From IMG/VR virus record IMGVR_UViG_3300005721_000046: 64,000 nt of DNA, one strand, 5' to 3'. Positions 27,666-46,085 of the stretch are shown one piece after another; position 1 is the first letter of the stretch, and each line of letters begins with the position of its first letter. Under the pieces are notes generated by a model. That model had not been told where the DNA came from. It saw nothing but the letters and a program-made list of their open reading frames with translations, and did not search any database. The position numbers and the translations under genes are program-made. This DNA comes from a virus.

Positions 27666-27697
27666 GCATAGAAGGAAATAAGGAAATAGGCATATAA

Positions 27698-27737
27698 GCG
27701 AGTAAGGAAGTACGGATTTCTTTAGTTCCTTACTCGC
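27698..27737 (+). promoter_or_regulatory. 12-bp perfect inverted repeat GCGAGTAAGGAA/TTCCTTACTCGC with a 16-nt loop, directly after the helicase stop and next to GGAAATAAG repeats
   Basis: Seen directly. Possible terminator or operator. Confidence 0.45.
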
Positions 27738-27824
27738 CCCTCCCCTACCCGCGTCATTTCCGTGCATTTTCTCGCTATAAAATATTATCGACAGCAACGT
27801 TGATTAAGTGAATGCGAGGAAAAA

Positions 27825-28499
27825 ATGCAGGAAACGCCCAAAATTTTTGCTATTTGCGGTCAACCAAAGTCGGGTAAAACCACGCTTGCTCAGATGCTGA
27901 AAAACAGACTTGGCTATCAGATCATTGATGACGCTCGACCATTACGTTCAATCGCGACACAGCATTTTGGCTTATCGTTGGCCGATGTAATTACTCAGGC
28001 GGGTAAATCAAAGCAAGTCGAATTTATGGGACGTCAATGGACGGTAAGACAGATTTTGGGCGAGATCGGTAACGCGCTTGAGGATAAATTCGGTGCCGAT
28101 ATTATTCCTGAGCTTGCATATATGCAGATGTGCCGGATGATGGAGCAGAAATCAATCAAGCACTTTGTTGTACCTTCCGTAAGACGTGATCAGGGTGTCT
28201 ACTGGAAATCAAAAGGCGCGCTTGTTGTTGAGATTTGTAACCCGAACGTTCCGGAGAGTGCGTTTGAATTCGATCAATATAACAAATCGGTCATCGATAT
28301 TCGTTTAATTAATGATTTTGATCCGGAACGAATAGCGGATCCTAATCGAGAACGTCGTCGGCTTTATAATGAATTCGTTGGGCATGTTCAGAAGAAGTTT
28401 GTTAAGCAGATTCAGTCGGGTGTTTTCTGCGGCGGCGTCATTCAAAATACTCCAGAACATATGCCACAGACATTATCGTGTGACGAAAGCGTTCTGTAA
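27825..28499 (+). CDS. P-loop nucleotide kinase (dNMP kinase-like)
   Basis: Walker A 'ICGQPKSGKTT'. 224 aa. Confidence 0.55.
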   Translation: MQETPKIFAICGQPKSGKTTLAQMLKNRLGYQIIDDARPLRSIATQHFGLSLADVITQAGKSKQVEFMGRQWTVRQILGEIGNALEDKFGADIIPELAYMQMCRMMEQKSIKHFVVPSVRRDQGVYWKSKGALVVEICNPNVPESAFEFDQYNKSVIDIRLINDFDPERIADPNRERRRLYNEFVGHVQKKFVKQIQSGVFCGGVIQNTPEHMPQTLSCDESVL

Positions 28500-28609
28500 T
28501 AAGGAAATAAGCATATAGGCATCTACTTTTTTCTCTAAATAGGGAATTTCCTTGCGGTATTTGCTTATTTGGTTATGTTTAAGGCATAGATTCGTATTAG
28601 GGAATTACA

Positions 28610-29263
28610 ATGCCTTTAATCATTGCCTGTTTGTCACAAAAAGGCGGAGTGGGTAAAAGCACTCTTGCCCGACTTATTGCCAGAACCTACGCAGTCGGTG
28701 GATGGTCGGTAAAAATTGCCGACTTTAACACGACACAGTTGAGTTCGTATAATTGGGCGCAAATTCGCAACGGTGAAGGCCATAAACCAAAAATCGATTC
28801 AGAGCCTGCCACCTCGCCTTCTCTTCTCAAACGCGAAAAATATGATCTGGTTGTCGCTGATGGTCGACCGGACTCCGATCAATCAAGTTTGGAAATCGCG
28901 CGAATAGCTGATCTGATTGTTATACCAACCGGTCTACCGCTAGACGACTTGATGCCACAGTTGCGCTTTGCCAATGAGCTCGTTGAAAAAGGCATAGATC
29001 CTCAAAAAATTCTTTGGGTGCTCAACAAGATCACCGATAGCATAACTGCGGTTGCAGAGGCGCGCGATTATATTCGTCAGGATCAGGATTATCGCATCGC
29101 CGCTCAAGAGCTCATGCACAAGATCAGTTACCAGAAAGCGCAAAACCATGGACTGGCTTTATCGGAAGTTGGTCGTAAGGTTGGTTCGTTGGAAGAAAAG
29201 GCTGATCTATTGGCGGCCGAAATCGTAGAGCTTGTTACCAAGTTGACGGAGGATAAAGAATGA
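28610..29263 (+). CDS. parA: ParA/MinD-family partition ATPase
   Basis: Deviant Walker A 'SQKGGVGKST'. 217 aa (small, type Ib size). Confidence 0.8.
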   Translation: MPLIIACLSQKGGVGKSTLARLIARTYAVGGWSVKIADFNTTQLSSYNWAQIRNGEGHKPKIDSEPATSPSLLKREKYDLVVADGRPDSDQSSLEIARIADLIVIPTGLPLDDLMPQLRFANELVEKGIDPQKILWVLNKITDSITAVAEARDYIRQDQDYRIAAQELMHKISYQKAQNHGLALSEVGRKVGSLEEKADLLAAEIVELVTKLTEDKE

Positions 29264-29514
29264 CTGAAGACGTAAAAACTAGAGCAGCAGTTCCGCCGCG
29301 TTCAAACAAAAGCTTTTTGCCACACGAAATCACAGCAAAGAAAGCAGGCGCAGCAAATAACATGCGCTCGGAAAAGACCGTTAAGACGTCTTTGCTGATT
29401 ACCGAAGAGCAACATCGCGATATGCGCTTGGCACGTGTCGAGTACAATCGGCCAGTCAATGACATTCTGGTTGAAGCGTTTTACCAGTGGCTCGATCGGC
29501 AGCGTAAGAAATAA
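29260..29514 (+). CDS. small ribbon-helix-helix-like partition partner (ParG-like)
   Basis: 84 aa overlapping the parA stop by 4 nt. Basic N-terminus and C-terminal helix pair typical of RHH centromere-binding proteins. Confidence 0.5.
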   Translation: MTEDVKTRAAVPPRSNKSFLPHEITAKKAGAANNMRSEKTVKTSLLITEEQHRDMRLARVEYNRPVNDILVEAFYQWLDRQRKK

Positions 29515-29570
29515 TATCCTGGTCTTCGAGACACAAAGAAGCAAAACGGTAGATAGGTAAAGAGGGATTA

Positions 29571-29636
29571 GCGTAGATAAGGAAATAAGCATTTGCGCAT
29601 TTAGGTATACGCCTATTTAGGTACATGCTTATTTCT
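29571..29636 (+). repeat. symmetric repeat element GGAAATAAGCAT ... ATGCTTATTTCT enclosing two ATTTAGGTA(C/T)AC direct repeats
   Basis: Seen directly. Immediately downstream of the parA-RHH operon. Candidate centromere or operator. Confidence 0.5.
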
Positions 29637-30069
29637 GGTCAAACGTCAACGACGTAACTTCGCCACCTGAAAACACATCAAACTGCATTGCGATTTTTAT
29701 AGCTTCCTCGGCGTTAGCACCCATTCCAAGCGCGCCATAAGCATATTTGCAGCCAGAACCAATTGCGTAATAATCGGATGAGAGCGGACCTGATGGTGTG
29801 TAGTTATCGCAGTAATAGAACACGCCTTCTTGGGTTATATGTAATGCCGCAAAATCTGGATCGGTGTCTGGTATTTCTTCAGGTCTTGCTCCGTTATTCA
29901 ACCAGTTGGCGATTTGCTCGGAAAAGCCTGGATGCGCCGTTGTAACGCCAACGAGACTGTTATTCTTCAGCTTGTGAATCTTTAATTTGTTGCCAATTGG
30001 TGTCGCATCGCCTGAGTAGGCACGCGAGTCAGCAGCAAGCACGCCATCACGATAAACAATTGTCGTCAT
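29629..30069 (-). CDS. HslV/proteasome-beta-like N-terminal nucleophile hydrolase
   Basis: 'MTTIVYRDGV' aligns with HslV 'MTTIVSVRRNG' (Thr1 nucleophile). Lys at the HslV K33-equivalent position ('NKLKIHKL'). 'YYAIGSGCKYAYGALG' aligns with 'LIAIGSGGPYAQAAAR'. An alternative start at 30108 would add a 13-aa pro-peptide. Confidence 0.65.
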   Translation of the reverse strand: MTTIVYRDGVLAADSRAYSGDATPIGNKLKIHKLKNNSLVGVTTAHPGFSEQIANWLNNGARPEEIPDTDPDFAALHITQEGVFYYCDNYTPSGPLSSDYYAIGSGCKYAYGALGMGANAEEAIKIAMQFDVFSGGEVTSLTFDQK

Positions 30070-30180
30070 TTTAATCCATGCAATAGAGGGGAAATGCGCG
30101 CATATCATTTGCGCTTAAGGCGACCGAATTCTCAAAGTCGCTTTTGTACTTTTAATCCCAACTTTCGATAAAATCAATAA

Positions 30181-30268
30181 ATAAGGAAATAAGTGAATAG
30201 GGGAATAAGGAAATAAGCGAATAAGCGAAGAGGGGAATACGGAAATAAGGAAATAGGTAAATAGAGGA
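30181..30268 (+). repeat. array of about 9 GGAAATAAG / GGGAATAAG / CGAATAAG direct repeats
   Basis: Seen directly. Upstream of the HslV-like gene. Confidence 0.7.
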
Positions 30269-30470
30269 GGACAGAAACCTCAAGGATTGCCGGGGTTTTT
30301 TTAAAGATCGAGCAGGGGAGGTTTGGATTTGAAAGTGTCGCGGCAACTGGAGGCATCCCCGAGATGCTTATTGCGTTGGGCTAAGACTTTCGCTATAGTA
30401 TATTTATCAAGAGAACAGAAAAACAAAATATCTTGATAGTAAAACAACAATTTAATGAAAGAGAAACAAA

Positions 30471-31115
30471 ATGTCAAAAGCAAAACTTAACAAAGAAAAC
30501 AACAAAGAAAACAACAAAAAAGAAACAATCTTAAAAGTTGCTAGAACAATTGAAAACGAATACGTAAAAGCAATTGATGAACGTCTTCAATTAGCACTAG
30601 CAAAAAATGTTTGCGCTGCAAACGAGAAGAAAATGCAAAACATGAAGCGCATGTTGTCAAGTGAACGCTTGTGTAATCTTTTAAGAGATGCAAAAGTTGA
30701 CGCGAATGCATTTTCTCGTGCAATTTACGCAAGCGAAAAAGTCGTAAAATTCGCAACACAAGCAATCGCATTTGACGCGACAAAATTAAACGAAAACACG
30801 CAAGCAATCTTCAAAACTGCAATCAATTGTGCAAAAAACAACGTCGAGTTTACAAAAGATGACGCGTGCGCTTCAATAAGCAAAGATTTAAACGTTGATG
30901 AAAATAAAAAAGCGTATGTTTTTCGTAGAAACATTATTCAACAAGTTTCAACAATTGCTGCACAAAGTCAAACAAGTCTTGACGCGTTGAAAACGCTTCA
31001 CATTATTAGCGACAATGCGCAAAAGAAAAATGTCTATGACGTAAATCTTGACAGCGAATTGACAAAAGCGCTTTGCAAAAACTTTAATATCGACTTGAAT
31101 GCAAAAGCTGCATGA
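30471..31115 (+). CDS. hypothetical protein, paralog of the 32831-33640 gene
   Basis: A-rich, low-GC ORF. 'INCAKNNVEFTKDDA' aligns with 'IKCSENNVSFTQG' in the paralog. Confidence 0.5.
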   Translation: MSKAKLNKENNKENNKKETILKVARTIENEYVKAIDERLQLALAKNVCAANEKKMQNMKRMLSSERLCNLLRDAKVDANAFSRAIYASEKVVKFATQAIAFDATKLNENTQAIFKTAINCAKNNVEFTKDDACASISKDLNVDENKKAYVFRRNIIQQVSTIAAQSQTSLDALKTLHIISDNAQKKNVYDVNLDSELTKALCKNFNIDLNAKAA

Positions 31116-31828
31116 TGAAAGTCAAACGAAAGCGAGTGAATTAACTCACTCGCTTTCAAATGCAAAACCCCTACGGGGCGTCCCACGATTTCATGCGGGG
31201 CGTCCCACGATTCGACACAAATACCAAACCATGGCTACCGGATTGATTATTTCCGGAATGGCGTTCGAAACGGTTTTCAAATGGTCGTCCGTCTTTTGTC
31301 TTGAAATAATTGGCAACCAGAATGGTGTCCATGCTGAAACAATCGGAAACCGGAATTGGCAACCAGAATGGCAACCAAGTTTAGGGCTGAATCAAAATGA
31401 CCGGCACTCTAATTCAGATCCAACGGGAAACCGCTTTTATAACCATCTCCAATGGCGAATTTTTGTCAGGCATTTTGGGCGCGTTTGACCAATTTTGGAC
31501 AGGTTTTCGGCAGGTTTTTCGCTGGTTTCGGGCGGTTTTCAGGTGGTGTTGGGCGAATTTTGGTGGTGGCGGTGTCGGTTTTGGCGGTGTTGGGCGGTTT
31601 TTTTCGGCAGGTTTTCAGGCGTTTTTCAGGCGTTTTTAGGTGAAATCCACGCATCCCACGGTTTAAATCTCGCCGTTCCTAGCCGACGTGTCCATTCCCC
31701 GGAATCCAAGCAAATCCAAAACCGCAAGCTATATCTCGGCTTCTAGGAATCTTGCCATTCCCCGAATTATCCATGGTTTTTAAGAAGCGTATTGAAAAGG
31801 GCTAGAGTTTAGCTCTTTTCAATGTGTT
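31116..31828. repeat. repeat-dense non-coding region. Contains a 16-bp direct repeat GGGGCGTCCCACGATT x2 (31175-31190, 31197-31212), TTGGCAACCAGAATGG x2.5 and about 15 G-rich units with T4-5 tracts phased at about 10-11 bp (31440-31640). Candidate origin / bent DNA
   Basis: Seen directly. ORFs called here on both strands are low-complexity artefacts. Confidence 0.6.
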
Positions 31829-32137
31829 TCACTGTTGCGCTTGTGAGAACGTTAAAGCCTTTAATTCAGCGCGCTTTTGATTAAGTTGCTTAACATATCG
31901 CGCGCGTCTAAATTTCATAACATTGTAGCGTTTGTTATAAAGTTCGATTAATTCATCAACCGAGCGATTTAAAGCGCTTGCAATAAGGCGAATACGCTCA
32001 CGAGTGTTTTTAACAATCTCGCTAAGCGCGATTATGATTTTCGGTTTCTCAAAGCGTCTCGTTGCAAGAGCGACGCTTGCAGCGTTAAGCAATTCAAATT
32101 CTTCGAAAAGGCGTTCGAATGAGCTGCGAAAAGACAT
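31829..32137 (-). CDS. hypothetical protein
   Basis: 102 aa ORF. Confidence 0.4.
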   Translation of the reverse strand: MSFRSSFERLFEEFELLNAASVALATRRFEKPKIIIALSEIVKNTRERIRLIASALNRSVDELIELYNKRYNVMKFRRARYVKQLNQKRAELKALTFSQAQQ

Positions 32138-32489
32138 TTTTTTTCTCTTTCTGTTATTTGATTATCATTAAAACAAAGACAAAAAGAGCGACGATAAGCG
32201 CGATCTCTTCAATTACGTCATAAAGAACAATGCGATTAAGTTCTTTTTCATAATCAAAATGCTGTCTCATTTGTTTCTCTTTCTGTTTGTTTTTTACATT
32301 TTGATAATAGCGTTTCAGAGCGTTGAAATCTCGAGGTGTCGAACGGTGAATACGCTTGCTGATTGGCCTGAATCGGCCGGAAAAAATTGGATAACGCTGT
32401 TAATCGGCCTCAAAAAAAAACGCAGGATTAGCGGCGTTTTGGCCTAAAGGTTCCGTAGATGTTATCGGTTGGCCGGAACGCCAAGGATT

Positions 32490-32658
32490 TTAAGGAAATA
32501 TGTACATAGGCAAATAGGCCGATAAAGAAATAGGTAAATAGGGAAATAAGCACATAAGGAAAGACACACGCCCGTGGGATCAGCGGCCAAGGTGCAAGCG
32601 GCCAAGGTGTTAGTGAGGATAAAGAAATAAGGAAATAAGGAAGTAGGTAAGTAGGTAC
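32490..32658 (+). repeat. GGAAATA-type repeat arrays (two clusters) plus GCGGCCAAGGTG x2
   Basis: Seen directly, including 'GGAAATATGTACATAGG', which resembles the palindromic operator half-site. Confidence 0.6.
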
Positions 32659-32689
32659 AAAAAAAAGACGCTGACCGAAGCCAGCGTCA
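32659..32689 (-). terminator. rho-independent terminator after gene 32831-33640
   Basis: Minus-strand RNA stem GACGCUG/CAGCGUC followed by U8-9. Confidence 0.7.
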
Positions 32690-32830
32690 GTTAAGAGCGA
32701 TCAGAATAGAGAAACACAAGAATCGCCCTTGAAAAGTTTTATACAATTGAAGAAAAATTCAAAAGCATAATAATAAATTAAAGCGTCTAGTGAGCACTAG
32801 ACGCCTATGAGATATCGTTGTTGAGTTGTT

Positions 32831-33640
32831 TCATTCATGAAACATTTTAATGAGTTGACGTGTTACAGGTGTATCTTTCAAAGCGATTACATTGTCGTCA
32901 CTCTTTTCATTATTGCTAGCAATTGCATCAAAAACCTCTAATGACGCGATCATTTGCGAACGCTGCGCTTGAGCCGTTGCTTTTGAAAGGTCGTGTCGCG
33001 TCAAATAACGCGCGTCACTGTGTGAGATGCGATATTCGCGCGATAATGACGCGAGTTGCAGACCCTGTGTAAAAGATACGTTATTTTCGCTACATTTGAT
33101 CATAGAACGTATAAAACAGTTGATTGTCTTATTGCTTGAATAAAAACCTTTCAACGCACGAGCGATCTCTGCAATCTTGAAAAACGCATAGACGTTGAAA
33201 CGGTTTTTAACGCTTTGCTGTTTATTTACAAAACTCTCATTAATGTGCAATGCGACGAAAACCTGACAAATGTCGTCACTCATGAACTGATTTTTTAGAA
33301 CCGTGAGATTATTGATCATTTTCATCGTGCAATTTTCTTTTGAACGCTCATAATCGATGCGAGCGTCAAAGGCGACAGCAAAATGCATGCGCATTTCTTC
33401 AATCTTTTTTACGTCTTCGATTGCAGTAAATATGTTATTGATATCACCTGATATGCTCTCACCGATATCAACTGACTTGATTGCGTTTGTATTGTTTAAC
33501 GAGACAGTTTTAACAACCGGTGCTTTCGCGATCTCTTCTGTTGTTTTGGTCTCTTCAATCTCTTTCGCATTAAGCGCGACGGCCTGCGCTGTAATATCGT
33601 CGAAAATCGCGGTGTTCGTCATGACGTCTGCAAGGTTCAT
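32831..33640 (-). CDS. hypothetical protein, paralog of 30471-31115
   Basis: See paralog. Followed by a terminator. Confidence 0.5.
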   Translation of the reverse strand: MNLADVMTNTAIFDDITAQAVALNAKEIEETKTTEEIAKAPVVKTVSLNNTNAIKSVDIGESISGDINNIFTAIEDVKKIEEMRMHFAVAFDARIDYERSKENCTMKMINNLTVLKNQFMSDDICQVFVALHINESFVNKQQSVKNRFNVYAFFKIAEIARALKGFYSSNKTINCFIRSMIKCSENNVSFTQGLQLASLSREYRISHSDARYLTRHDLSKATAQAQRSQMIASLEVFDAIASNNEKSDDNVIALKDTPVTRQLIKMFHE

Positions 33641-33794
33641 TTTGTTTCTCTTTCTGTTTTGTTTTCGCGTTAATATTTTGATTTCATTGCGAAAAATTGT
33701 TTTACAAGAAAGACTATAGTCAAAAAAAACAAACGTGTCTCAAGGCTTATAACGGTTTGTGACGGTTTGAAATTCCGGAACTTTGAACAAAGAG

Positions 33795-33870
33795 ACGTTC
33801 CCGTCCTACACGCTGTAATATATATAATATATCTAACATTATAATATTAATTTACAGCGCGTAGGCAGGA
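33795..33870 (-). promoter_or_regulatory. conserved ~90-bp element, copy 2: IR CCTACACGCTGTAA/TTACAGCGCGTAGG (33805-33818 and 33852-33865) around an AT-rich (TA)n spacer
   Basis: Seen directly. Flanks are also shared with copy 1 ('TTCCCGTCCTAC', 'CTCCGG'). Confidence 0.6.
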
Positions 33871-33893
33871 AAGAGACATCTCCGGGCGTTCTA

Positions 33894-34745
33894 TTAGATA
33901 TCTCTAACGCACTTAAAATGCCTTAAGTGCGTTGTTAAAATCACTTCTCCTAAGAATTCGTTGAGACCCAAAATATTATAGTGCTCAACTATTAACTCGT
34001 CGGTGTCGTCACGAGCCGTTATCGCTAAAACCGAAGGAACACGGTGTTTTTCAAAAGCTAAGGCGTAATGTTCCTCTCTGTATTGCGGCTCTTTTACGGT
34101 CTTTGGGGTTTTTCGTAAAACCGTCTTCGATTGAACCGTTCGATAATAAGCGGCTTTCTGCATAACTTCGATTAAATGAGCGCGGTCGCTTTCACTTAAC
34201 TCACTTAGCTTTTTGTTTTTTTCAAATTTTGAAACGAGATCCTTGAGATCGTTGACTGTCGAAAGCTTATTCTTTTTGCAATATTCTTCTGAGGCTTCTA
34301 AAAGCGTTAATAATGTCGGATCACAACGTTGTTGACATTTGAAGTGTTCAATTTTTTCTAGTGAGGAATTTTTAAAGAATTTATTTAGCTTTTCAATCGA
34401 GATAAATTCGGCTGTTAAATCGGCGATGGCTTCCTGGGGTTTATGATGCATTTTTACAAAATAAACAGGAAATTCCATCAGGCGTGGACGGCTGATGGCG
34501 TAATAGATAGCCTCTTTCGTTTTTTCATCGAGTATTACTTCCTCAAAATAAGCTGCGTCTTTTATATTGAGCAGCGTTATGTTTGTATCCCAGTCGCCTT
34601 TTAATTTACGTCGAACGCGTCTCTTGTAGGAATCGCCGGCAGATAATATTAAATCCTCGGCTGTAACGAGATCGTAGATTTCGCAAAAATCCTCCGATTG
34701 TCTCAAGAGATCCATATAGAGAGTCGGTGACTTGCTGTCAGGCAT
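33894..34745 (-). CDS. hypothetical protein, paralog family B member 1 (two internal repeats)
   Basis: Aligns along its length with 35023-35868 ('LEKIEHFKCQQRCDPTLLTLLEASEEYCKKNKLS' versus 'EEKLQNFKCLKPCACATVFIELLKSSEEYCKEHELS'). Start chosen at the Met aligning with the paralog start. The longest ORF starts at 34841. Confidence 0.55.
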   Translation of the reverse strand: MPDSKSPTLYMDLLRQSEDFCEIYDLVTAEDLILSAGDSYKRRVRRKLKGDWDTNITLLNIKDAAYFEEVILDEKTKEAIYYAISRPRLMEFPVYFVKMHHKPQEAIADLTAEFISIEKLNKFFKNSSLEKIEHFKCQQRCDPTLLTLLEASEEYCKKNKLSTVNDLKDLVSKFEKNKKLSELSESDRAHLIEVMQKAAYYRTVQSKTVLRKTPKTVKEPQYREEHYALAFEKHRVPSVLAITARDDTDELIVEHYNILGLNEFLGEVILTTHLRHFKCVRDI

Positions 34746-34831: not shown

Positions 34832-34847
34832 GGAAATACATATTTCC
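34832..34847. promoter_or_regulatory. perfect 16-bp palindrome GGAAATACATATTTCC (operator-like) within a 45-bp conserved promoter block
   Basis: Seen directly. Identical palindrome and flanks at 35936-35951. Confidence 0.6.
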
Positions 34848-35022
34848 CTATAAGCCTATTTCTGCATATGCGTAGAAGAAGGTAGATAGACTACCCGGAA
34901 GCCATGGTTTTGAGTTTATGTTCTTGGTTTTTTTGATGCGTTATATCTTGACAAAACCTTCATCAAAGACACAAAAACAGAGAAAGCTTTTTTGCTTTCT
35001 CTGTTGTCATTCTTTTACTCTA

Positions 35023-35868
35023 TTACATATATCTAAAGCATTTAAAGCATTTCATCTGCTCAGTAGTCGCGTTACTCATAAGATTACTGAACTCGAAAAC
35101 GTTATAATGTTTTTCTTCAAACTCATTTTTATGTTCAAGTAGCGATAAAACGCAAACCTCATGATTAAGAGTGCGTTCGAGATATGCAAAGGCGCGATGT
35201 CTAATGTCGTTATTTTCTTCGTCATATGAACATTCGTAAAACGCTGCATTTTTCATAATCTCGATTGCGTGATCACGATCTTCATTTAAAAACTGTTTCG
35301 TCTCGTCATATTTTTTACTGATCTTGTAAAAATCGTCATGCGTCGAAAGCTCATGCTCTTTGCAATATTCTTCAGAACTTTTTAAAAGCTCGATAAACAC
35401 AGTCGCGCATGCACAAGGTTTTAGACATTTGAAGTTTTGTAGCTTTTCTTCTGTTGCGTTTTCAAAAAACTTGTTGAACTCTTCAAGCGTAATATATTCG
35501 CATGTCAATTCAGCATATTCTTCTTCAGGTTTGTCATGAAGAATTGAACGATAGATACATGAAGGTCTATCATCGTTTTCGTGATAGCAAAAAGAATAAT
35601 AAATAACTTCATGTGTTTCTTTATTAATTGATTGCGCTTCATAATAAGCAGCTTCAATCATGAAAGACAGATCTGTCTCGAACTGACCGTAAGAGTAACC
35701 GTACTCATCATTTTCGTCATCAGAGTGCGTAAAAACTTCATGATGTTGTTTTTGATCTTCTACGTAATGAACTAATTCATCATAGTCAGTTAAATTATGC
35801 TGCACGCAAAACTTTTGAGACTTTTTCAAGAGTGCTAAATATTTAGTATCAGACATTTGCTCATTCAC
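35023..35868 (-). CDS. hypothetical protein, paralog family B member 2 (two internal repeats)
   Basis: See member 1. The internal duplication is visible ('KKSQKFCVQHNLTDYDELV' and 'KSSEEYCKEHELSTHDDFY'). Confidence 0.55.
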   Translation of the reverse strand: MNEQMSDTKYLALLKKSQKFCVQHNLTDYDELVHYVEDQKQHHEVFTHSDDENDEYGYSYGQFETDLSFMIEAAYYEAQSINKETHEVIYYSFCYHENDDRPSCIYRSILHDKPEEEYAELTCEYITLEEFNKFFENATEEKLQNFKCLKPCACATVFIELLKSSEEYCKEHELSTHDDFYKISKKYDETKQFLNEDRDHAIEIMKNAAFYECSYDEENNDIRHRAFAYLERTLNHEVCVLSLLEHKNEFEEKHYNVFEFSNLMSNATTEQMKCFKCFRYM

Positions 35869-35935: not shown

Positions 35936-35951
35936 AAGGAAATACATATTT
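35936..35951. promoter_or_regulatory. second copy of palindrome GGAAATACATATTTCC, 68 nt upstream of paralog B member 2
   Basis: Seen directly. Confidence 0.6.
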
Positions 35952-36009
35952 CCCTAAAGGCGTATATCCTTATATATTTAGGCGAATGTCCGGGAAATCG
36001 CGTATTAAT

Positions 36010-36330
36010 CGCATCCTTGGTTTTCATCGGCTTAGGCTTCGCGTCATGGTTTCTTCATACCTTGGTTTATCTACCTTGGTTTTCACGCCTTGGTTCTTAA
36101 ACCACGGTTTCGCGTCACGGTTCTTAAACCATGGTTTTTAATACCGAGGCATCTTCACCGTGGTTTTGTGTACCTAGGAAAAAGTCCAGCCATTCCTAGG
36201 ATTTTAGGTGTGTGAGCGAAAACTCAGTCATTCCTCGGTTTTTGCACAAAGGCTTCTAGGTGTCTAAACGCGAACTCAGCCGTTCCTAGGCGTATAGACA
36301 AAAGCTCAGTCGTTCTTAGGTATAGTCCGG
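36010..36330. repeat. GGTT-rich repeats (CCTTGGTT x4, GGTTCTTAAACCAYGGTTT x2). Then four copies of core CTCAGYCRTTCYTMGG at variable spacing
   Basis: Seen directly. Confidence 0.6.
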
Positions 36331-36444
36331 ATTGGTTTATGGCTTCAGGTTTACGGATTATGCAGGAAAAGATAGGGCGAAGAGGGGAGGGGTGAATTTA
36401 CCTATTGAAATCCAAAGAGCACGGCGGCGCGGAATTTTTCATCG

Positions 36445-36560
36445 TCCGCTTACGTCCGTTCTTATTCGCTCTTATTCATTCTTATTCGTTCTTACTCGCT
36501 TACATTCGTTCTTGGTCACTCTTGTTGGTTCTCAGTTCGCTCTTATTCGTTCTTATATGC
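36445..36560. repeat. about 11 tandem copies of a 10-bp unit YTCTTATTCG (reverse complement CGAATAAGAR)
   Basis: Seen directly. The unit is the reverse complement of the GAATAAG motif found elsewhere. Confidence 0.75.
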
Positions 36561-36840
36561 TCATACACGCTTCTAATGATCTGAAGGCGTTTTGACGCTA
36601 TCTGTCTTTTTTTACGTCTTGCTAGAATATGTTTTATGCTTAGCGTTCCCTATCATGCGTAAAAACGCTCAGTTGACCCTCTAAGCGCGTTTTATATCTT
36701 TGACGTATGAATTGACGTCTTGTTTGACGGTCGCACTCAGTGAGCTTCTATAGCGTTTTTTAATATGATGTTATTTGTTATAGACCTGTCTTAGTTTTTT
36801 ATGTTTCAGCTTGTTAGCGTTTTAAAAAAAATAAATTTTG

Positions 36841-37025
36841 GCCTAAAACGTAAACTTTTGTCAACTTATGTCGTTCTTGGCCTGAATAATCCGATATCTT
36901 AAGTTGACAGATTGTGGCCGATCGAAGCCGGAATTTGTGTTTTAGGCTGTGTTTTTACATGATAAGTTGACAGATTATGGTCAAAATGGCCTAAACGTAA
37001 ACATTTTATGGCCTAAACGTAAACG
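36841..37025. repeat. GGCCTAAACGTAAAC x3 and TAAGTTGACAGATTRTGG x2 direct repeats
   Basis: Seen directly. Confidence 0.6.
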
Positions 37026-37709
37026 TTACGCTATTTCATTTTCGACACAAAAATTCTTAAGTCTGTTGAGCTTGGCAATGGTTGCGCGAAGATGAGTTTT
37101 TTGCCAAAAGCCTGATGTTTCCATTCGCGAAGGATCTTTTGTGAAAGGTGTATCCTTTCGCTCAATCTTATTAGCCAAATATAGCCATTCAATCGCCTCT
37201 TTAAGAAAGAAGTTATGCCGTTTATGTAGAAAGGACATTTGATAACGTTTTTCTGCCTTTGCTAATTCAGGCTTTAATCGACACAAATGTTTTATAACGT
37301 TTGGTGAATCCAAATGCCGCATAACGTTTCGAACGAGCAAACTTATAAACATTATAAATATTGCGTTTTTAAGCGCCGCTATTGTTAGCAATTCATACTC
37401 GTCGAAGTGAAAGGTTTCCGGTATGTTAAAACCTTCAATCACGCTTTCAATGTTGGCCGATGGTTTGTAATATAATCGATTAAGAATGTCTAAAATGTCA
37501 TGAACAAGATCGTATGTGTTTGGATGTTCCGGATCGTTTAACGATTCCTTAGGAAATTGTTTAGCGAATTGAATGAACCAGAACAGCTTTTCGTTGAGAG
37601 TTTTCCCATGCATATTCTTCATATCATCCAACGAAATTATATCAGCTAGGTCAATCATGACGCTCTTCCGTGTCGTTTTTGTTGTCTTCGTGATTGATAT
37701 ATTTCTCAA
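37026..37709 (-). CDS. hypothetical protein
   Basis: 227 aa ORF. Confidence 0.45.
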   Translation of the reverse strand: MRNISITKTTKTTRKSVMIDLADIISLDDMKNMHGKTLNEKLFWFIQFAKQFPKESLNDPEHPNTYDLVHDILDILNRLYYKPSANIESVIEGFNIPETFHFDEYELLTIAALKNAIFIMFISLLVRNVMRHLDSPNVIKHLCRLKPELAKAEKRYQMSFLHKRHNFFLKEAIEWLYLANKIERKDTPFTKDPSRMETSGFWQKTHLRATIAKLNRLKNFCVENEIA

Positions 37710-39418: not shown

Positions 39419-39451
39419 AATCTATTTCTCCGAAATAGCTGCTTTCAGTTA

Positions 39452-39505
39452 GTATTATAGCTTGAGATAGCGTGGAGAAATGTCGGTATAAAAAGGCTTT
39501 AACAC
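39452..39505 (-). promoter_or_regulatory. repeated promoter-like element copy 1 (TATAAT - N11 - CGYGGAGAAATGTCGGTAT ... GGCTTTAAC)
   Basis: Minus-strand TATAAT at 39454-39459. Upstream of the 38837-39418 gene. Confidence 0.55.
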
Positions 39506-39524
39506 TTGCCTTTAGTTATGATAT

Positions 39525-40531: not shown

Positions 40532-40577
40532 TAGCTTATCACCTCGACAAAACGATTGCTTGAGTTAATTTCGTGAG

Positions 40578-40630
40578 TTATTATAACTGATAACAACGCG
40601 GAAAAATGTCGGTATGAAAAGGCTTTAACG
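40578..40630 (-). promoter_or_regulatory. repeated promoter-like element copy 2
   Basis: Minus-strand TATAAT at 40580-40585, N11, then CGCGGAAAAATGTCGGTATGAAAAGGCTTTAACG. Confidence 0.55.
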
Positions 40631-41398
40631 ATGTCTCGTGTTTAGTTTTTTCTCAAGTTTTTCAAAGCAAGCCGAAAGCATGCTGGAATCATAACCATTA
40701 AATAATTCACCAGCGGATAATGCAGATTGATGACTGTCAAAACCGGTTTTTGTTTTGCAATAGTCGAAGCTGATAACTTTAAAACCATATGTGCCTTTGT
40801 TATTCTCATCCTCAAAGGTTCTTACCCATTGAAAGATTCCTTGAGATTGCAAACCACATATAAAATCTTTAGGTTCGATTAAAATACCAAGTTCTTTACG
40901 TGAAAAATCTGGTTTTTCCATAAGCTCGGTTGCGTTAGCTAATATGAAATTTTTTATTTCAAAATAAACTTTATTATATGGTCGATTATGCTTTTTAGAA
41001 GCCCATTCGGTCGCGATTATTAACTTTTCAATGCCTGATTTAGATAAATCGTCATAACAATGCATGTAATAATCTTCAGGAATAATCTCAGCGACAAGGC
41101 TTAATGCGTCTTGCATATTATTTGCAAAAACAGAATCCTCGTAGAGGTTTAATTCGTCATATCCAAATGTGAAAATAAACTCAATGTCATTTTCATCAGA
41201 TTTATCAATCCTCAAGCGAACATTGAATGGTAAATGATCTAATTTTGAATCATATGGAACAAAATTAGAGTCTCGTAAATTTTCAATGGAGCCTCGAATG
41301 GTCTTGCTTACGGGCGTCATTTTAATTCTTTTGTTTGTTTTATCATCACAAATGACAAACCACGAATTAACCGGGCCGCGCAAAAGATATGCCTGCAT
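40625..41398 (-). CDS. hypothetical protein
   Basis: 257 aa ORF. Confidence 0.4.
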   Translation of the reverse strand: MQAYLLRGPVNSWFVICDDKTNKRIKMTPVSKTIRGSIENLRDSNFVPYDSKLDHLPFNVRLRIDKSDENDIEFIFTFGYDELNLYEDSVFANNMQDALSLVAEIIPEDYYMHCYDDLSKSGIEKLIIATEWASKKHNRPYNKVYFEIKNFILANATELMEKPDFSRKELGILIEPKDFICGLQSQGIFQWVRTFEDENNKGTYGFKVISFDYCKTKTGFDSHQSALSAGELFNGYDSSMLSACFEKLEKKLNTRHR

Positions 41399-41498
41399 AA
41401 TTGATGTCTTTCATATTAAGATAGATAAATGGCAATTGACAAAAACTGGCCGTCTCGAACGGTGTAAACGATGTTATTCAATTAATTCAGACGTGACA

Positions 41499-41792
41499 CT
41501 AAACATTTTCGTTTATTTGGTTGTCAAGTTTATCAAGCATTTTCTGCCTTTCACGTTGGTCAAGTCCCCACAACTGCGGATTGATTGCATAATTGTGCTT
41601 GTGACAATGTGTTGCGTGTTGAACAGCTTCGTCTAGGGTGTCAAACACGCCTAGCCATTCACCATAAAGAACCGGAAAAGTTATGCCATATTGTCCTTGA
41701 CTTCGGCCGTAATAACCAAATGAAATATGATATCTTTTATCAATTTTCAGCTCTCCTCGCTTGTTTATTCGCTTATCAGAGGCGATACGCAT
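41499..41792 (-). CDS. hypothetical protein
   Basis: 97 aa ORF with a promoter element upstream. Confidence 0.4.
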   Translation of the reverse strand: MRIASDKRINKRGELKIDKRYHISFGYYGRSQGQYGITFPVLYGEWLGVFDTLDEAVQHATHCHKHNYAINPQLWGLDQRERQKMLDKLDNQINENV

Positions 41793-41827
41793 GATGAATT
41801 CTCCGTTCGTTTGTTTTGTTGTCTTTC

Positions 41828-41880
41828 GCTATTATAGCTGCAGAAAACGCGGAGAAATGTCGGTAAAAGAAGGCATTAAA
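41828..41880 (-). promoter_or_regulatory. repeated promoter-like element copy 3
   Basis: Minus-strand TATAAT at 41831-41836, N11, then the conserved block. Confidence 0.55.
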
Positions 41881-41886
41881 CGTTTT

Positions 41887-42600
41887 TTAAGACCAATTTT
41901 GATCTTCTTCTATTTGCTTTTTTCTTATTTCGACAGCGCCCTTTAATCGTTCAATGAAGCGTTGCTTTGCCGTCATGATGTCATTACGCGGAAGAATAAT
42001 ATCTGAACCATCAAACTTGGCGAGTGTTTCTGTATAACGAATGGCGATATTCTTATAAGCGATAATACCGGAACCGGGTCGATAATCCTCTATGATCGAA
42101 AAGATATAAAGGAATGAACGCCGCGCTATTTTACGTTGTGCTATCGAAATAGCTTGGTTTATATCTAAAAATGGGCCGCCGCCAATGCCGTCGACACTTA
42201 GACATGGCTTATTAGACGTATCTCGCTGATGTTCTTCAATGTACCAAAAATAGCTTTCTGGCTTTTGTTGCCATTGTTTTTCTTTCTCTTTCGTTTTCTC
42301 GAACGCTTGTTTTAAAGCATAACAATCGCTTTGATTTAAATGATAACCCACGCAGATTTTTTTAACCACATCCGTAGGTAACGTTGTAGTTCCGGCTTCG
42401 AGCCAAGCCAGCAGTGATGCGTGTACGCCAGTCACTCTTTCCATGTCTTCAATACCATGCTTATGGGCCTTTCGTATCGTACGAATTGCAAGTCCAAAAT
42501 CTGTCGTCTCGCTTGGTATCTCGAATAAGCTGTCGCTGTTCTCGACGTTTAAGTCCCAACTCCAGTACCAATTAGTGCTCTTTTTATCTTTAATTGTCAT
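41887..42600 (-). CDS. XRE-family HTH regulator with novel C-terminal domain (paralog 1)
   Basis: HTH 'AIRTIRKAHKHGIEDMERVTGVHASLLAWLEAG'. Along-length similarity to 42726-43421. Confidence 0.55.
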   Translation of the reverse strand: MTIKDKKSTNWYWSWDLNVENSDSLFEIPSETTDFGLAIRTIRKAHKHGIEDMERVTGVHASLLAWLEAGTTTLPTDVVKKICVGYHLNQSDCYALKQAFEKTKEKEKQWQQKPESYFWYIEEHQRDTSNKPCLSVDGIGGGPFLDINQAISIAQRKIARRSFLYIFSIIEDYRPGSGIIAYKNIAIRYTETLAKFDGSDIILPRNDIMTAKQRFIERLKGAVEIRKKQIEEDQNWS

Positions 42601-42667
42601 GCTTTGTTTCCATCTCTATCGTCTCGACGAAACGGTTGTTTGTGCTAATTCTGTGTGATTGAGTGTT

Positions 42668-42722
42668 TATTATAGCTGCAGAAAACGTGGAGAAGTGTCG
42701 GTATGAAAAGGCTTTAAACGCG
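42668..42722 (-). promoter_or_regulatory. repeated promoter-like element copy 4
   Basis: Minus-strand TATAAT at 42669-42674. Confidence 0.55.
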
Positions 42723-42725
42723 TTC

Positions 42726-43421
42726 TCAGGAATAAAACTGGTCTTGTTCTTGTTGTTTTTGCCTTATCTCAACAGCGTTTTTTAAACGTTCGATGAAGCG
42801 TTCCTTTGCCGTCATCATCTCTTTACGCTGAATAATACCTGAGGCGCTAGACTTGGCGAATGTTTCTACAAAACGAATGACGATATTCTTATAAGCAATA
42901 ATACCGGAGCCAGGTCGATAATCCTCTACAACCGAAAAAACATAAACGGTTGACGGCTGTACCACTTTAAATTGTGCTACCGAAATAGCTTGGTCAATAT
43001 CTAAAAATGGACCGCCGCCAATACCATTGTTGTTTTGCGAGGAGGGCTGATGTTCTTCAATGTACCAAAAATAACTTTCTGGCTTTTGTTCCCATTGTTC
43101 TTCTTTGATTTTTGTTTTTCGGAAAGCTTGCCTCAAGGCATAATCATCTTCCTGGCTTAATTGATAACCCACGCAGATTTTCTCATCGACTCCATAAGGC
43201 AATCTTACAATTCCGCTTTCAAGGCAACTCAGTAGGCGATAGTCGACATCGGTCAATCTTCCCATGTCGACGACGGTATGATTATGAGCCTTTCGTATCG
43301 TTCGAATTGCATGACCGAAATTCGTTATTTCACTTAGAATTTCAAATAGGCTGTCATTAGTCTTAAAATCCGAGTCCCAGTTCCAGTGCCAATTAGTGCT
43401 CTTTTTGTCCTTAATTGTCAT
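42726..43421 (-). CDS. XRE-family HTH regulator with novel C-terminal domain (paralog 2)
   Basis: Start set at 'MTIKDKKSTNW', which is conserved with paralog 1. The longest ORF extends to 43448. Confidence 0.55.
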   Translation of the reverse strand: MTIKDKKSTNWHWNWDSDFKTNDSLFEILSEITNFGHAIRTIRKAHNHTVVDMGRLTDVDYRLLSCLESGIVRLPYGVDEKICVGYQLSQEDDYALRQAFRKTKIKEEQWEQKPESYFWYIEEHQPSSQNNNGIGGGPFLDIDQAISVAQFKVVQPSTVYVFSVVEDYRPGSGIIAYKNIVIRFVETFAKSSASGIIQRKEMMTAKERFIERLKNAVEIRQKQQEQDQFYS

Positions 43422-43499
43422 GTTATCGTCGACTCCTAACATCTTCACAAAGTGTCTTTTCTCCCGTTATGGGTTGATAGACGTGTGATTATTGTTGCA

Positions 43500-43697
43500 T
43501 TAAGAGCACTCCTCGAGGGCAATTCTTACAGCCGTATTAACTTGAGCGATAATTCGCTCATCGGTGTCTCCTCGCTTCTTTAAAATACGAACAATGGTAG
43601 TCATAAAAGCGGCCGGTAAGACACGAGCCGACTCGTCGTCAGAAAGTCTTCGATCCGCTTCAATCTTTATTGAAATTTTTGGTAAGTTGTCGGTCAT
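43500..43697 (-). CDS. hypothetical small protein
   Basis: 65 aa ORF with a promoter element upstream. Confidence 0.35.
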   Translation of the reverse strand: MTDNLPKISIKIEADRRLSDDESARVLPAAFMTTIVRILKKRGDTDERIIAQVNTAVRIALEECS

Positions 43698-43776
43698 TTT
43701 GTTTTCTCTTTATTCGGTTCATCTGTCGCGTCAATGAGACGTTCGTTTGTGTTGATTTTGCGTTATTGTATGTTTG

Positions 43777-43835
43777 ATTATAGCTGCAAACAGTGCGGAA
43801 AAATGCTGGGTAAAGAAGGTATTAAACACCTGATA
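43777..43835 (-). promoter_or_regulatory. repeated promoter-like element copy 5
   Basis: Minus-strand TATAAT at 43777-43782. Confidence 0.55.
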
Positions 43836-43873
43836 GAGACAATTGATTCAATGATGAATGGTTTTCGCTGTAA

Positions 43874-44251
43874 TCAATGGATATTGTCGGTTGTGTCGCG
43901 TTCTTTTCCTGATGAATAGCTGGCCGTCAGTGATTGCAAATAATCGCGTTCTGATTGCGATAAATTACCATCAGCTAACGCGGTTGCGATTGTCGCTTTG
44001 ATTATTTCTTTTTCAGCGGATAATGACGGCATTAGCGAATAAAAGAAAAAAAACGCACAAGAAGCAAAAAGAAAACCTCCAGTTATCATTTTCAGTTCGT
44101 CCGTTATTTTTTCTCCAGCCATGCTGACCGCCAGAATTACAAACATCGCTATCCAAAAAAAGATAAATGAAGTTGATGCGGTTACGAAAAAGAATGTTTG
44201 CAAATTGCTCGCGCCGTCACAGCGATAAATTATGCCAATAACGTCATTCAT
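43874..44251 (-). CDS. membrane protein (3 TM)
   Basis: Hydrophobic segments. 4-nt overlap with the upstream gene. Confidence 0.4.
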   Translation of the reverse strand: MNDVIGIIYRCDGASNLQTFFFVTASTSFIFFWIAMFVILAVSMAGEKITDELKMITGGFLFASCAFFFFYSLMPSLSAEKEIIKATIATALADGNLSQSERDYLQSLTASYSSGKERDTTDNIH

Positions 44252-44781
44252 TCTGCGATTTTCTCTTTTATTTCGTTTAAATTTGTTTCGGCCGCGAGCA
44301 ATTCAGCCAATTTTTCTTGAGCCAGAACAATAGCGTCTATGCCGCTGTTAAGCTTTCTTTGCTGGTAAATGTCGAAACAGGTTTGGAAAAATTCGGTTAG
44401 CAGGAAAAAACTAATAGCGAAGCGAACCGCTTGTACGACATCAACTGCCCCAACGCGATTACCGACATGACTAAACAGTTCAATTTGAAAATGAAAATCT
44501 GGTAGTAAAACCATAATATTGGTAAGAATGGATAGCAGAATAAATAAGACAAATTTTTTTCGCCAAACACGTTCGAGGTTGGTTATAAGATATTCGCGAA
44601 GATGCGTTTCTCCTATCGTCGCAGCTTTGGTAACTGTTCTATTAACCAGTTCAAGAGAATATATTCTTGGAAGCGCGAAAATAACATAGGAAATGCTGAG
44701 TTCCGTTAATGTAACGATAGGACTTTGCATAAACACGTAATAGAGAAACGCGAGTATGGCTAAGAAGCAGGCTTTTTTCAT
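44248..44781 (-). CDS. membrane protein (4 TM)
   Basis: Hydrophobic segments. Confidence 0.4.
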   Translation of the reverse strand: MKKACFLAILAFLYYVFMQSPIVTLTELSISYVIFALPRIYSLELVNRTVTKAATIGETHLREYLITNLERVWRKKFVLFILLSILTNIMVLLPDFHFQIELFSHVGNRVGAVDVVQAVRFAISFFLLTEFFQTCFDIYQQRKLNSGIDAIVLAQEKLAELLAAETNLNEIKEKIAE

Positions 44782-44830
44782 TTTTCGGCCTCTAAATGTT
44801 CGTAGTGGGATTCACCGTCTTGTTGTCGGT

Positions 44831-45337
44831 CTAAACTTCTTCGGAAGAGGCGATAGTCGCGTCGTAATAGATAATTTTGATACCGAGTGAGCCTGCGCTA
44901 CCAAGCTGATCAATATGATAAGATGGATCTTCAATATCGATCAGCCCGTTTAGATGTTGTTCGATAATGTCGTTGAACGCATCTCCGGGACTTTTACTCG
45001 GCCAAAGACCTCTTCCGGCTTTAATCGCTGCAGTAAATTTAGGAAGATCGATTTCACACGTTAGATATGTTTCGGCTTTAACGTTAATTGTTTTTATCGA
45101 TCCATCTTCTGTTTCGTTTTGTATTCGCTTTATCAAAAGTTGATTGCGGCGCAGTGAGACGTCAAACTTTGTTTCTCTATTTTCTTCGTCAAAAACCGAA
45201 AAAGTTTCATGAGATTGTTCGGTGTCTAGCTTCTGTAGGCGTTGCGCTACGTCTTTATTTAAGAAAATGTAACTTGCTATTGCGTCTTTGGGATTGCGAG
45301 CGGCTATTTTTTGTTTATTTATGATGAAAAAGTTCAT
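44831..45337 (-). CDS. hypothetical protein
   Basis: 168 aa ORF. Confidence 0.4.
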   Translation of the reverse strand: MNFFIINKQKIAARNPKDAIASYIFLNKDVAQRLQKLDTEQSHETFSVFDEENRETKFDVSLRRNQLLIKRIQNETEDGSIKTINVKAETYLTCEIDLPKFTAAIKAGRGLWPSKSPGDAFNDIIEQHLNGLIDIEDPSYHIDQLGSAGSLGIKIIYYDATIASSEEV

Positions 45338-45349
45338 TTTTATATGCCT

Positions 45350-46036
45350 TCAAACCGTCGCTTCGATTAGTTTTCTTTCGTCAATGACTTTTTTAATTTT
45401 GGCGCGTAAAATAACAGCCGCTGCTGCTGCGTTATATGTCCACTTTCGCATCCATTCATTTTTTTGATGCGAGTAATGAAATCCTCGTTCTTTCAAAAGA
45501 TCAGTAATGTCCGGCGAAGGCTTTTCTGAAAAAATGAATTTTATTCGTTTTTCTTCGGAATTCTGTTCAAGATCAAAGCCGTATTCCGGGTAAGAAAGTC
45601 TCTTTGTTTTAAGCGTTGCGATATGCTTTATTTCCTCAATTCGTTTTTTTAACCGACGAATTTCTGAATATTTTGCGGCTGTCTTATTTTTTTCGGCTTT
45701 TATCTCGGCGAGCTTGGCTTCAAGCTTTTCAACCGCATCCGGATCATCACTTGAAATGCCGCCTTTACCGACTGATTTCGCTTTTTCTTCATAAAATTCC
45801 GCTTTTTCAATTTCTTTGGTCGCACGACTAAAAGCACTGTCAAGCTGGTTTTGAGTCCGTAAATGTTTTTGTTCAGAATAATGACCGCGTAAAACGGGTT
45901 GACCACCTGAGCCCAAAAAGACCTGATGCCGTTCGTGCGCGGCATTCAATATTTCGTCCGATTTTTGTCGAGCTGTTGCGGCTTTTTTGAGCAGTTGTTG
46001 ACGTTTTTGTTCCTGTTTTTCGTAGATATTCGTCAT
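45350..46036 (-). CDS. hypothetical coiled-coil protein
   Basis: 228 aa. Five CCTTATTT repeats lie immediately upstream. Confidence 0.45.
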   Translation of the reverse strand: MTNIYEKQEQKRQQLLKKAATARQKSDEILNAAHERHQVFLGSGGQPVLRGHYSEQKHLRTQNQLDSAFSRATKEIEKAEFYEEKAKSVGKGGISSDDPDAVEKLEAKLAEIKAEKNKTAAKYSEIRRLKKRIEEIKHIATLKTKRLSYPEYGFDLEQNSEEKRIKFIFSEKPSPDITDLLKERGFHYSHQKNEWMRKWTYNAAAAAVILRAKIKKVIDERKLIEATV

Positions 46037-46045
46037 TTTTCAAAA

Positions 46046-46085
46046 CCTTATTTCCTTATTTCCTTATTTCTTTATTTCCCTATTT
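46046..46085 (+). repeat. 5 tandem copies of CCTTATTT (= AAATAAGG), abutting the start of gene 45350-46036
   Basis: Seen directly. Confidence 0.7.

Follow-up and report, generated by a model that had tools for sequence, protein, structure and literature searches.

Dispersed arrays of an 8-bp repeat around a putative type Ib partition gene pair in an RHEph10-like phage-plasmid

The Repeat Arrays and Their Positions

The viral record IMGVR_UViG_3300005721_000046 in IMG/VR contains a stretch of 64,000 nucleotides, below called the window, in which arrays of a short repeat are found at nine intergenic sites between positions 27,666 and 46,103. These arrays, the parA gene and the small gene downstream of parA are the subject of this analysis. 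The window belongs to the RHEph10/pLM21S1/RHph_X66 group, which are phage-plasmids of about 110-120 kb found in Alphaproteobacteria; pLM21S1 is a plasmid-like prophage related to RHEph10 (PMC5537653). The conserved gene order is terminase, two ParB_N genes, helicase, a deoxynucleoside monophosphate (dNMP) kinase-like gene, parA, the small gene, an HslV-like gene and orf214.

The true unit of the arrays is 8 bp long with the consensus GGAAATAA, and about 53 units are distributed over the nine sites. The position weight matrix (PWM) of 42 in-register units is strongest at G1, A5, T6, and A7, and the conserved core is an ATARG box which recurs every 8 bp, with a variable A-rich spacer of three bases between the boxes. 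The arrays are far beyond chance. An earlier note made from the letters of the window alone (the original prediction) had proposed a comparison with shuffled sequence, and in this comparison, with dinucleotide shuffles, 19 occurrences of ATARGNNNATARG stand against 0.29, nine of three consecutive boxes against 0.00, and 12 of TARG three times in succession against 0.04. The exact string GGAAATAR occurs 18 times where 6.4 are expected, 13 of them within arrays, and none of 100 shuffles reached this number. GAATAAG, which had also been named as a motif of the system, is not enriched when counted alone (11 against 10.65 expected).

A single unit amounts to 7.7 bits in the PWM, and 181 matches of at least 7 bits are scattered through coding DNA; single matches are thus uninformative and clusters alone count. 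A cluster scan of both strands, in which at least three units in register were required irrespective of their strand, gave five strong array regions, all at the sites described below (0.02 in block shuffles), and no clusters in the remaining ~45 kb. Nor was any comparable array found at 1-27,600 or 46,110-64,000, or inside any long open reading frame (ORF). The arrays listed in the original prediction are real and stand at the coordinates given there; they are far above the shuffles and found in non-coding DNA only. The genome-scale reach suggested for them is not seen, as they are regional (27.67-46.10 kb) with none elsewhere in the window. Scans of the window for tRNAs and Rfam families gave no matches.

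The first array, A1 (27666-27737, plus strand), follows directly on the stop codon of the helicase gene (27665), and the dNMP-kinase-like gene (27825) is found downstream of it. It consists of six direct units, one non-matching position and two inverted units in a single 8-bp register. A2 (28495-28580, plus strand) is located 30-115 nt upstream of the ATG of parA and contains two strong and additional degenerate direct units (28495-28542) followed by two inverted units (28557-28572), the latter pair being out of register; it is a possible operator of parA. As was pointed out in the original prediction, the string GGAAATARGCATATARGC (27682 and 28503) follows each of two consecutive stop codons. 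A3 (29573-29636, plus strand) lies between the small gene and the convergent HslV-like gene, with two direct units just past the stop codon of the former and an in-register inverted unit at 29629. It was considered whether the inverted repeats of A1 and A3 are terminators only, and this was rejected since their arms are units in the register of the array itself.

A4 (30177-30264, plus strand) is the largest array with 11 contiguous direct units, and it is a candidate for the main centromere. It is found between the HslV-like gene (29629-30108, minus strand) and the divergent orf214 (30471-31115, plus strand). A5 (32494-32565, plus strand) has nine contiguous direct units, and A6 (32615-32654, plus strand), 50 bp from A5, has four or five and is followed by a terminator-like hairpin on the minus strand (stem at 32667-32688). 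Tandem Repeats Finder (TRF) reported a higher-order 32-bp period in A4, and 16- and 32-bp periods in A4 and A5.

A8 (34832-34863) and A9 (35938-35969) have the same layout (> <. <), in which a plus-strand unit abuts a minus-strand unit and a second minus-strand unit follows after one weak position, all in the 8-bp register. They are found upstream of the genes B1 (33894-34745, minus strand) and B2 (35023-35856, minus strand), which are true paralogs as had been proposed (30% identity, E 3e-36). A8 is located just upstream of a TTGAAG-17-TACAAT promoter-like site of B1, and a block that contains the unit pair, immediately 5' of this promoter-like site, is conserved between the upstream regions of B1 and B2. 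The string GGAAATACATATTTCC, present at 34832 and 35938, had been taken for a perfect palindrome of 16 bp; its arms are 7 bp long with a 2-nt centre between them, and it is the plus-strand unit abutting the minus-strand unit. The two centres lie upstream of the likely ATGs, at a distance of 94 nt for B1 (ATG at 34745) and 89 nt for B2 (ATG at 35856).

In the last array, A7 (46048-46103, minus strand), two plus-strand units come after five minus-strand ones in the same register. Between its end and the ATG (46036) of the DUF3560 gene that follows (45350-46036, minus strand) there are 12 nt. Inverted units stand in the 8-bp register of the direct units in A1, A3, and A7, and also in A8 and A9, and the nine sites are all upstream of or between operons. 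According to the original prediction the arrays control the accessory region. However, the stretch from 37 to 45 kb is devoid of arrays and the sites flank conserved maintenance genes; only A7 is at the far edge of the accessory block. The C-terminal part of the DUF3560 protein (Pfam E 2e-20) matches a PHROG annotated as primase, and the gene may be a replication-related gene under the control of A7.

The parA Gene and the 84-aa Protein

The parA gene (28610-29263, plus strand) encodes a Walker-type ATPase of 217 amino acids (aa) with the P-loop KGGVGKS and without an N-terminal DNA-binding domain. It matches CbiA, AAA_31, ParA, and MipZ in Pfam, and positions 1-200 of the 203 of the NCBIfam model NF041546, 'ParA family partition ATPase', with an E-value of 2e-21, which is under the curated cutoff. 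The start codon of the small gene (29260-29514, plus strand) overlaps the stop codon of parA (ATGA). Its product of 84 aa is the candidate centromere-binding protein, and it has the predicted layout of a ParG-like ribbon-helix-helix (RHH) protein, with an N-terminal tail (TRAAVPP..FLP), a predicted strand (KTSLLIT) and two helices. In the AlphaFold2 (AF2) model of the monomer, residues 42-48 form an extended stretch and residues 49-62 and 64-83 form helices. Scanned alone, the protein gave weak matches to RH3_dom in Pfam (E 0.02) and to the structure of E73 (4aai, E 0.025), and it has no match to the Pfam family ParG (PF09274) at the gathering threshold.

A direct search for homologues found five near-identical relatives, which is too shallow for a profile. 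Since the direct homologues were too few, the family profile was built from a 37-sequence alignment of the ORFs immediately downstream of ParA in loci that had been found with a ParA profile. The best match of this profile in the PDB is ParG of TP228 (1p94, E 9.4e-4), followed by omega (1irq, E 0.046) and then by 56B, E73, Mnt, and CopG, all of which are RHH proteins. When the members were scanned singly, 20 of the 37 matched Pfam RHH_10 and nine matched PF09274, the best with an E-value of 4e-5. Taken together, the profile and member matches indicate that the family is ParG-like and that the protein of the window is a divergent member of it. As it falls under the Pfam threshold, it is described here as ParG-like in fold and role, and it is not filed as a member of the ParG family.

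The ParA protein is 62-66% identical to those of pLM21S1 and RHph_X66, while the identity of the small protein is just 31-33%. The N-terminal tail (TRAxVPP..FLP) is shared with the Rhizobium relatives, while the predicted DNA-reading strand differs, being KTSLLIT in the window and GMTFNMP in these relatives. Such a pattern would follow if the tail were in contact with the conserved ParA. Judged by sequence, the gene pair fits a type Ib partition system, with a small Walker ParA, an RHH-like gene downstream of it and adjoining 8-bp arrays of mixed orientation.

Arrays and Small Proteins in Related Loci

About 45 related loci were compared with regard to the co-variation of protein and repeat, and the complete pLM21S1 (117.5 kb) served as a proxy for the whole replicon. 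The original prediction had suggested that conservation of the arrays in relatives be checked, and arrays with an 8-bp period are indeed found at matching syntenic positions. The locus L003, whose small protein is 89% identical to that of the window, has GGAAATAR arrays behind the helicase gene and the small gene, in front of parA and the orf214 homologue, and at the position of A5, with other numbers and orientations of the units. In pLM21S1 and RHph_X66 the 8-bp-period arrays at the matching positions are built from TAGCTA. The counterparts of A1 are found at 7964-7991 in L003 and at 71673-71720 in pLM21S1, and those of A5 at 12913-12963 and 65778-65810, respectively. At the position of A2, L003 displays about 11 units of mixed orientation in a single register (read by eye and unscored), and in pLM21S1 and RHph_X66 TAGCTA/TAGATAG units adjoin the start of parA. 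The equivalents of A3 are inverted TAGCT units right after the RHH gene in pLM21S1, RHph_X66, and three further loci (L015, L017, and L019). When the relatives are aligned, the position of A4 is kept immediately 5' of a conserved GAGGAGG block, with different unit sequences. In pLM21S1 as a whole the arrays are clustered around par (65.8-71.7 kb), with outliers at 12.8 and 49.6 kb (0.02 in shuffles). This conservation of position together with the turnover of sequence speaks for selected sites and against neutral repeats.

The cores of the relatives differ from that of the window (TAGCTA, CGAAA, and TAACGAAT), and the dominant period-8 5-mer tracks the predicted strand of the small protein. 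Where the strand is MTFNM, AGCTA is the top 5-mer in nine of ~13 loci, against none of ~32 loci with other strands. The strands (D/N)LNFKV and DMSFKV pair with CGAAA or GCGAA, PLNFKP with TAACGAAT, and ISFGFRV with GGAAATCT, while KTSLLIT, the strand of the window and L003, pairs with GGAAATAA.

Three unrelated phage contigs of ~35-40 kb (L053, L055, and L056) have ParA alone in common with the window, with 36-37% identity. They are without ParB_N, orf214, helicase, and every other window protein tested, and still up to seven 8-bp arrays flank parA and a small ORF. This comparison is the sole break of the ancestry link in the co-variation, and it connects the arrays with the par module, not with any other gene of the phage-plasmid.

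The composition of the module in these contigs may be described separately. All three, including L055 (IMGVR_UViG_3300046684_000163, at 2215-12316), contain ParA, a small RHH-like ORF, and 8-bp TAACGAAT arrays, and in one contig up to seven arrays were counted within 12.6 kb, including one between parA and the small ORF. The dispersed layout is thus not peculiar to the RHEph10-like family. A scan of viral contigs for GGAAATARGGAAATARG gave 71 unrelated single matches and no related element. In L003 an inverted layout, CCCTACTTCCCTAT...ATAGGGAAGTAGGG, is visible at ~19,830-19,870; synteny with A7 is not established.

The non-coding block directly 3' of A4 (30265-30400 in the window, 10973-11110 in L003, and ~11365-11440 in the locus L001) reads GAGGAGGAyAGrA ... 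GTCGC..GGCATCCCC ... CTAAGACTT(T)CG. It is kept in relatives with proteins that are just 50-60% identical, while the array sequence is replaced. The block may be the leader or promoter of orf214, or a small RNA.

Proposed Function of the Arrays

It is probable that the arrays are multi-copy binding sites of the 84-aa RHH protein, acting as the partner of ParA in a type Ib partition system. The original prediction had ascribed the repeats to one sequence-specific protein, either the RHH partner of ParA or one of the XRE paralogs, and the arrays to a centromere or to iterons. The family profile, the geometry of the arrays, and the three unrelated contigs argue for the RHH partner and for centromere arrays; the XRE and iteron parts of the proposal are not supported.

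In the mechanism proposed, which follows the analogy of ParG and omega, one RHH dimer would bind each ATARG box by inserting its two-stranded β-sheet into the major groove. Dimers on neighbouring boxes 8 bp apart would touch and coat the array cooperatively, in either orientation of the units. The long arrays would act as centromeres, that is A4 (11 units), A5 and A6 (nine and four to five), A1 (six plus two), and A7 (five plus two). By the rule from pSM19035 that at least four contiguous repeats are needed, A1, A4, A5, A6, and A7 could be centromere-competent, while A2, A3, A8, and A9 look more like operators. The N-terminal tails (TRAAVPP..FLP) may engage nucleoid-bound ParA and stimulate its ATPase, and in this way the plasmid prophage would be segregated. 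The parA-proximal A2 and A3 would autoregulate the operon, while A8 and A9, near promoter-like sequences, together with A1 and A7 might make the expression of nearby maintenance genes depend on how much RHH protein is present. The genes coupled would be the dNMP-kinase-like and HslV-like genes, orf214, B1, B2, and the DUF3560 gene.

Several points weigh against this proposal. The 84-aa protein alone has no significant match in Pfam, PHROGs, or NCBIfam, and its assignment as an RHH protein rests on homology to its relatives and on a family profile with an E-value of ~1e-3. The AF2 model is of low confidence, with a predicted local distance difference test score (pLDDT) of 62, and a Foldseek search of the monomer against the PDB gave meaningless coiled-coil matches only. 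The latter search is uninformative because of the low confidence of the model and because an RHH fold requires a dimer partner. The co-variation of strand and box is confounded by shared ancestry; in the RHEph10-like family, every DNA-binding protein that is specific to a lineage would be expected to vary together with the repeats. Binding, cooperativity, and the centromere and operator activities are what we infer from these comparisons, and the operator roles are guesses from promoter-like sequences. The nine sites over 18.4 kb exceed what is found in the TP228 system. Finally, the evidence from this replicon comes from a 64-kb window.

A wider and more tentative interpretation, to which we give well under an even chance, is that the RHH partner of ParA is a global organiser with distributed sites. 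Their positions would be fixed at operon boundaries, and strand and box would have switched jointly several times (among GGAAATAA, TAGCTA, CGAAA, TAACGAAT, and GGAAATCT). The window has nine such sites within 18 kb, and pLM21S1 has about eight over its 117 kb. If this is true, the family would be a natural series of RHH specificity swaps, from which an RHH-DNA recognition code could be worked out. The swaps might also be the way in which partition incompatibility between related phage-plasmids is avoided, and gene expression in the prophage state would be connected to segregation.

Alternative Explanations

It is unlikely that the arrays are bound by another DNA-binding protein and that the small protein has nothing to do with them. 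The candidates for such a binder are the two ParB_N proteins (24579-25271 and 25342-25998), orf214, and the XRE/HTH_31 paralogs. ParB_N and orf214 are conserved throughout the RHEph10-like family, so they would co-vary with the repeats too; orf214 is directly downstream of A4 in a conserved arrangement, and the RHH protein of the window is without a significant family match of its own. However, in the three unrelated contigs 8-bp arrays flank parA and the small ORF where ParB_N, orf214, helicase, and the other window proteins tested are all missing. ParB proteins of the ParB_N/helix-turn-helix (HTH) type normally use palindromic parS sites. A type Ia ParB/parS system does not agree with the window: two ParB_N proteins are encoded, but the units at the sites are 8 bp long, in tandem and not palindromic, and arrays are also found in loci without ParB_N. 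XRE-type HTH proteins normally read dyad sites of ~14-20 bp, not runs of 8-bp units, and the XRE genes (41887-42600 and 42726-43421), which the original prediction named as one possible source of the binder, are found amid a different 76-nt repeat with no arrays nearby. An 8-bp box period with free orientation is, on the other hand, the documented signature of ParG (PMC3130281).

Iterons were also named in the original prediction, and we consider it very improbable that the arrays are replication iterons of a plasmid initiator, marking one or more origins. It is true that the region is rich in other origin-like repeats (31170-31790 and 35980-37030), and the higher-order periods found by TRF in A4 and A5 would agree with such a role. 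Iterons are ~17-22 bp long, placed at helical spacing, and clustered at the origin beside the rep gene. The units described here are 8 bp and contiguous, and they are scattered over nine separate sites, several of them just upstream of unrelated genes. No Rep-family match was found among the neighbouring genes tested, and on the 117.5-kb circle of pLM21S1 the annotated RepC and the main array cluster are ~47 kb apart, measured to the closer end of the cluster. We find it hardly credible that the arrays act as RNA, either as a purine-rich GGA/AAGG sponge or as ribosome standby sites, or that they are neutral microsatellites arisen by slippage. Most arrays are co-oriented with the flanking plus-strand genes, the units contain GGA and AAGG, and A7 ends close to a start codon. 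However, the in-register inverted units of A1, A3, A7, A8, and A9 are a property of sites in double-stranded DNA, and the conserved positions are ATA plus G and not GGA. Furthermore, the arrays of relatives at the same positions consist of CGAAA or of the palindromic TAGCTA, without any GGA, and the scan for Rfam families was negative. CsrA-type and small RNA (sRNA) sponge readings were considered and rejected.

Relation to Known Partition Systems

The proposed binding of the arrays by the ParA partner belongs to a well-known kind of system, type Ib ParA/RHH, and no new mechanism is involved. For the TP228 parH/OF region it has been shown experimentally that 4-bp boxes alternate with 4-bp spacers, that there are 12 plus 8 boxes, some direct and some inverted, and that each box takes one ParG dimer (PMC3130281). 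The window resembles TP228 in having a small Walker ParA, a small RHH protein encoded downstream with a flexible N-terminal tail, degenerate boxes every 8 bp in mixed orientation, ~8-12 boxes per array, and an operator-like array next to parA. In addition, ParG is the best match of the family profile among solved structures. The two differ in the box, which is ATARG within GGAAATAA here and ACTC in TP228, and the protein of the window is below the Pfam ParG threshold. Furthermore, nine sites are distributed over 18.4 kb, many beside genes other than par, whereas TP228 has one parH-OF region of ~160 bp, and the host element here is a family of ~110-120-kb phage-plasmids.

The plasmid pSM19035 has six parS sites of 7-10 heptads, which cover promoters of three operons, and the activation of ParA requires a run of four or more repeats (PMC9499535). 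The likeness to pSM19035 lies in an RHH protein that is both centromere-binder and repressor, and in separate arrays of short repeats of mixed orientation; the corresponding role of the arrays in the window is a candidate one. A8 and A9 abut the TTGAAG-17-TACAAT promoter-like site. The repeat of pSM19035 is, however, a 7-bp WATCACW heptad and not an 8-bp ATARG unit, and the profile match to omega is just that to 1irq (E 0.046). Moreover, pSM19035 is a Firmicute plasmid with a regulon of copy control and toxin-antitoxin genes, while dNMP-kinase-like, HslV-like, and unknown genes are found here. The N15 plasmid prophage also has several scattered partition sites, some of which are placed to influence phage gene expression. 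N15 uses the type Ia proteins SopA and SopB, the latter an HTH ParB, and its sites are single inverted repeats, not RHH arrays.

Full-text literature searches found no description of the arrays or of a partition module in RHEph10/pLM21S1-like phage-plasmids. The present annotation of the module puts forward a candidate centromere-binding protein, the box that it would recognise, and nine candidate sites. Over ~45 loci strand and box diverge in pairs, which provides a data set for RHH recognition rules and partition incompatibility, and the spread of the sites suggests an omega-like coupling of segregation to the expression of maintenance genes in a phage-plasmid.

Other Repeats in the Region

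The original prediction counted a 10-bp array at 36445 among the arrays, in reverse orientation. It is a genuine tandem repeat (36445-36556, minus strand) of ~10-11 copies with the minus-strand unit A[AG]CGAATAAG; the period is 10 bp, and that it is part of the same system is not established. The array contains ATAAG boxes and copies of GCGAATAAG, a string identical to one A4 unit, at 10-bp and not 8-bp spacing, and two of its 8-mers exceed 7 bits in the unit PWM. The block that precedes it (GGGGAGGGGTGAATTTACC...CGCGGAATTTTTCATC) is conserved in L003, where the array itself is degenerate.

A second and unrelated set of repeats is found in two long non-coding stretches (31170-31790 and 35980-36340). 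It includes CGGGGCGTCCCACGATT (two to three copies), AATTGGCAACCAGAATGG (three copies), and an 11-bp tandem of the type GGCGGTTTTCAGG, as well as CCTTGGTT/CACGGTT motifs and boxes of the type CAGCCATTCCTAGG. Similar boxes, CCATTCC or CCGTTCCCC, are present at the matching place in L003 and pLM21S1. These repeats could be an origin or iteron-like sites for another protein. Short repeats are also found at 36600-37030, where TTGACGTCTTG and TAAGTTGACAGATT(G/A)TGG are present in two copies each and (A)TGGCCTAAA(A)CGTAAAC in three; this looks like a cluster of binding sites or an origin. Upstream of the minus-strand gene at 32831-33640, an AT-rich inverted repeat, ACGCTGTAATATATATAATATATCTAACATTATAATATTAATTTACAGCGCGT, was seen by eye at 33805-33860, and a similar GCGCTGTATATAATATAATATATATAAAATTAACAAATTCACAGCG was seen in the same way in L003.

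The accessory block contains five copies of an element of ~76 nt, TATTATAGCTGCAGAAAACGCGGAGAAATGTCGGTA..AAGGC.TTAA, at 39427-39502, 40553-40628, 41804-41879, 42642-42717, and 43750-43825. Each copy lies a short way upstream of an accessory gene on the minus strand, and the two XRE/HTH_31 paralogs are among these genes. The element is probably a promoter or regulatory cassette that is repeated in the accessory block and has no relation to the 8-bp arrays. The two XRE-type paralogs (41887-42600 and 42726-43421) are arranged in tandem and encode proteins of ~235 aa. Along most of their length they have a DNA identity of 73-81%, and this points to a recent duplication within the accessory block.

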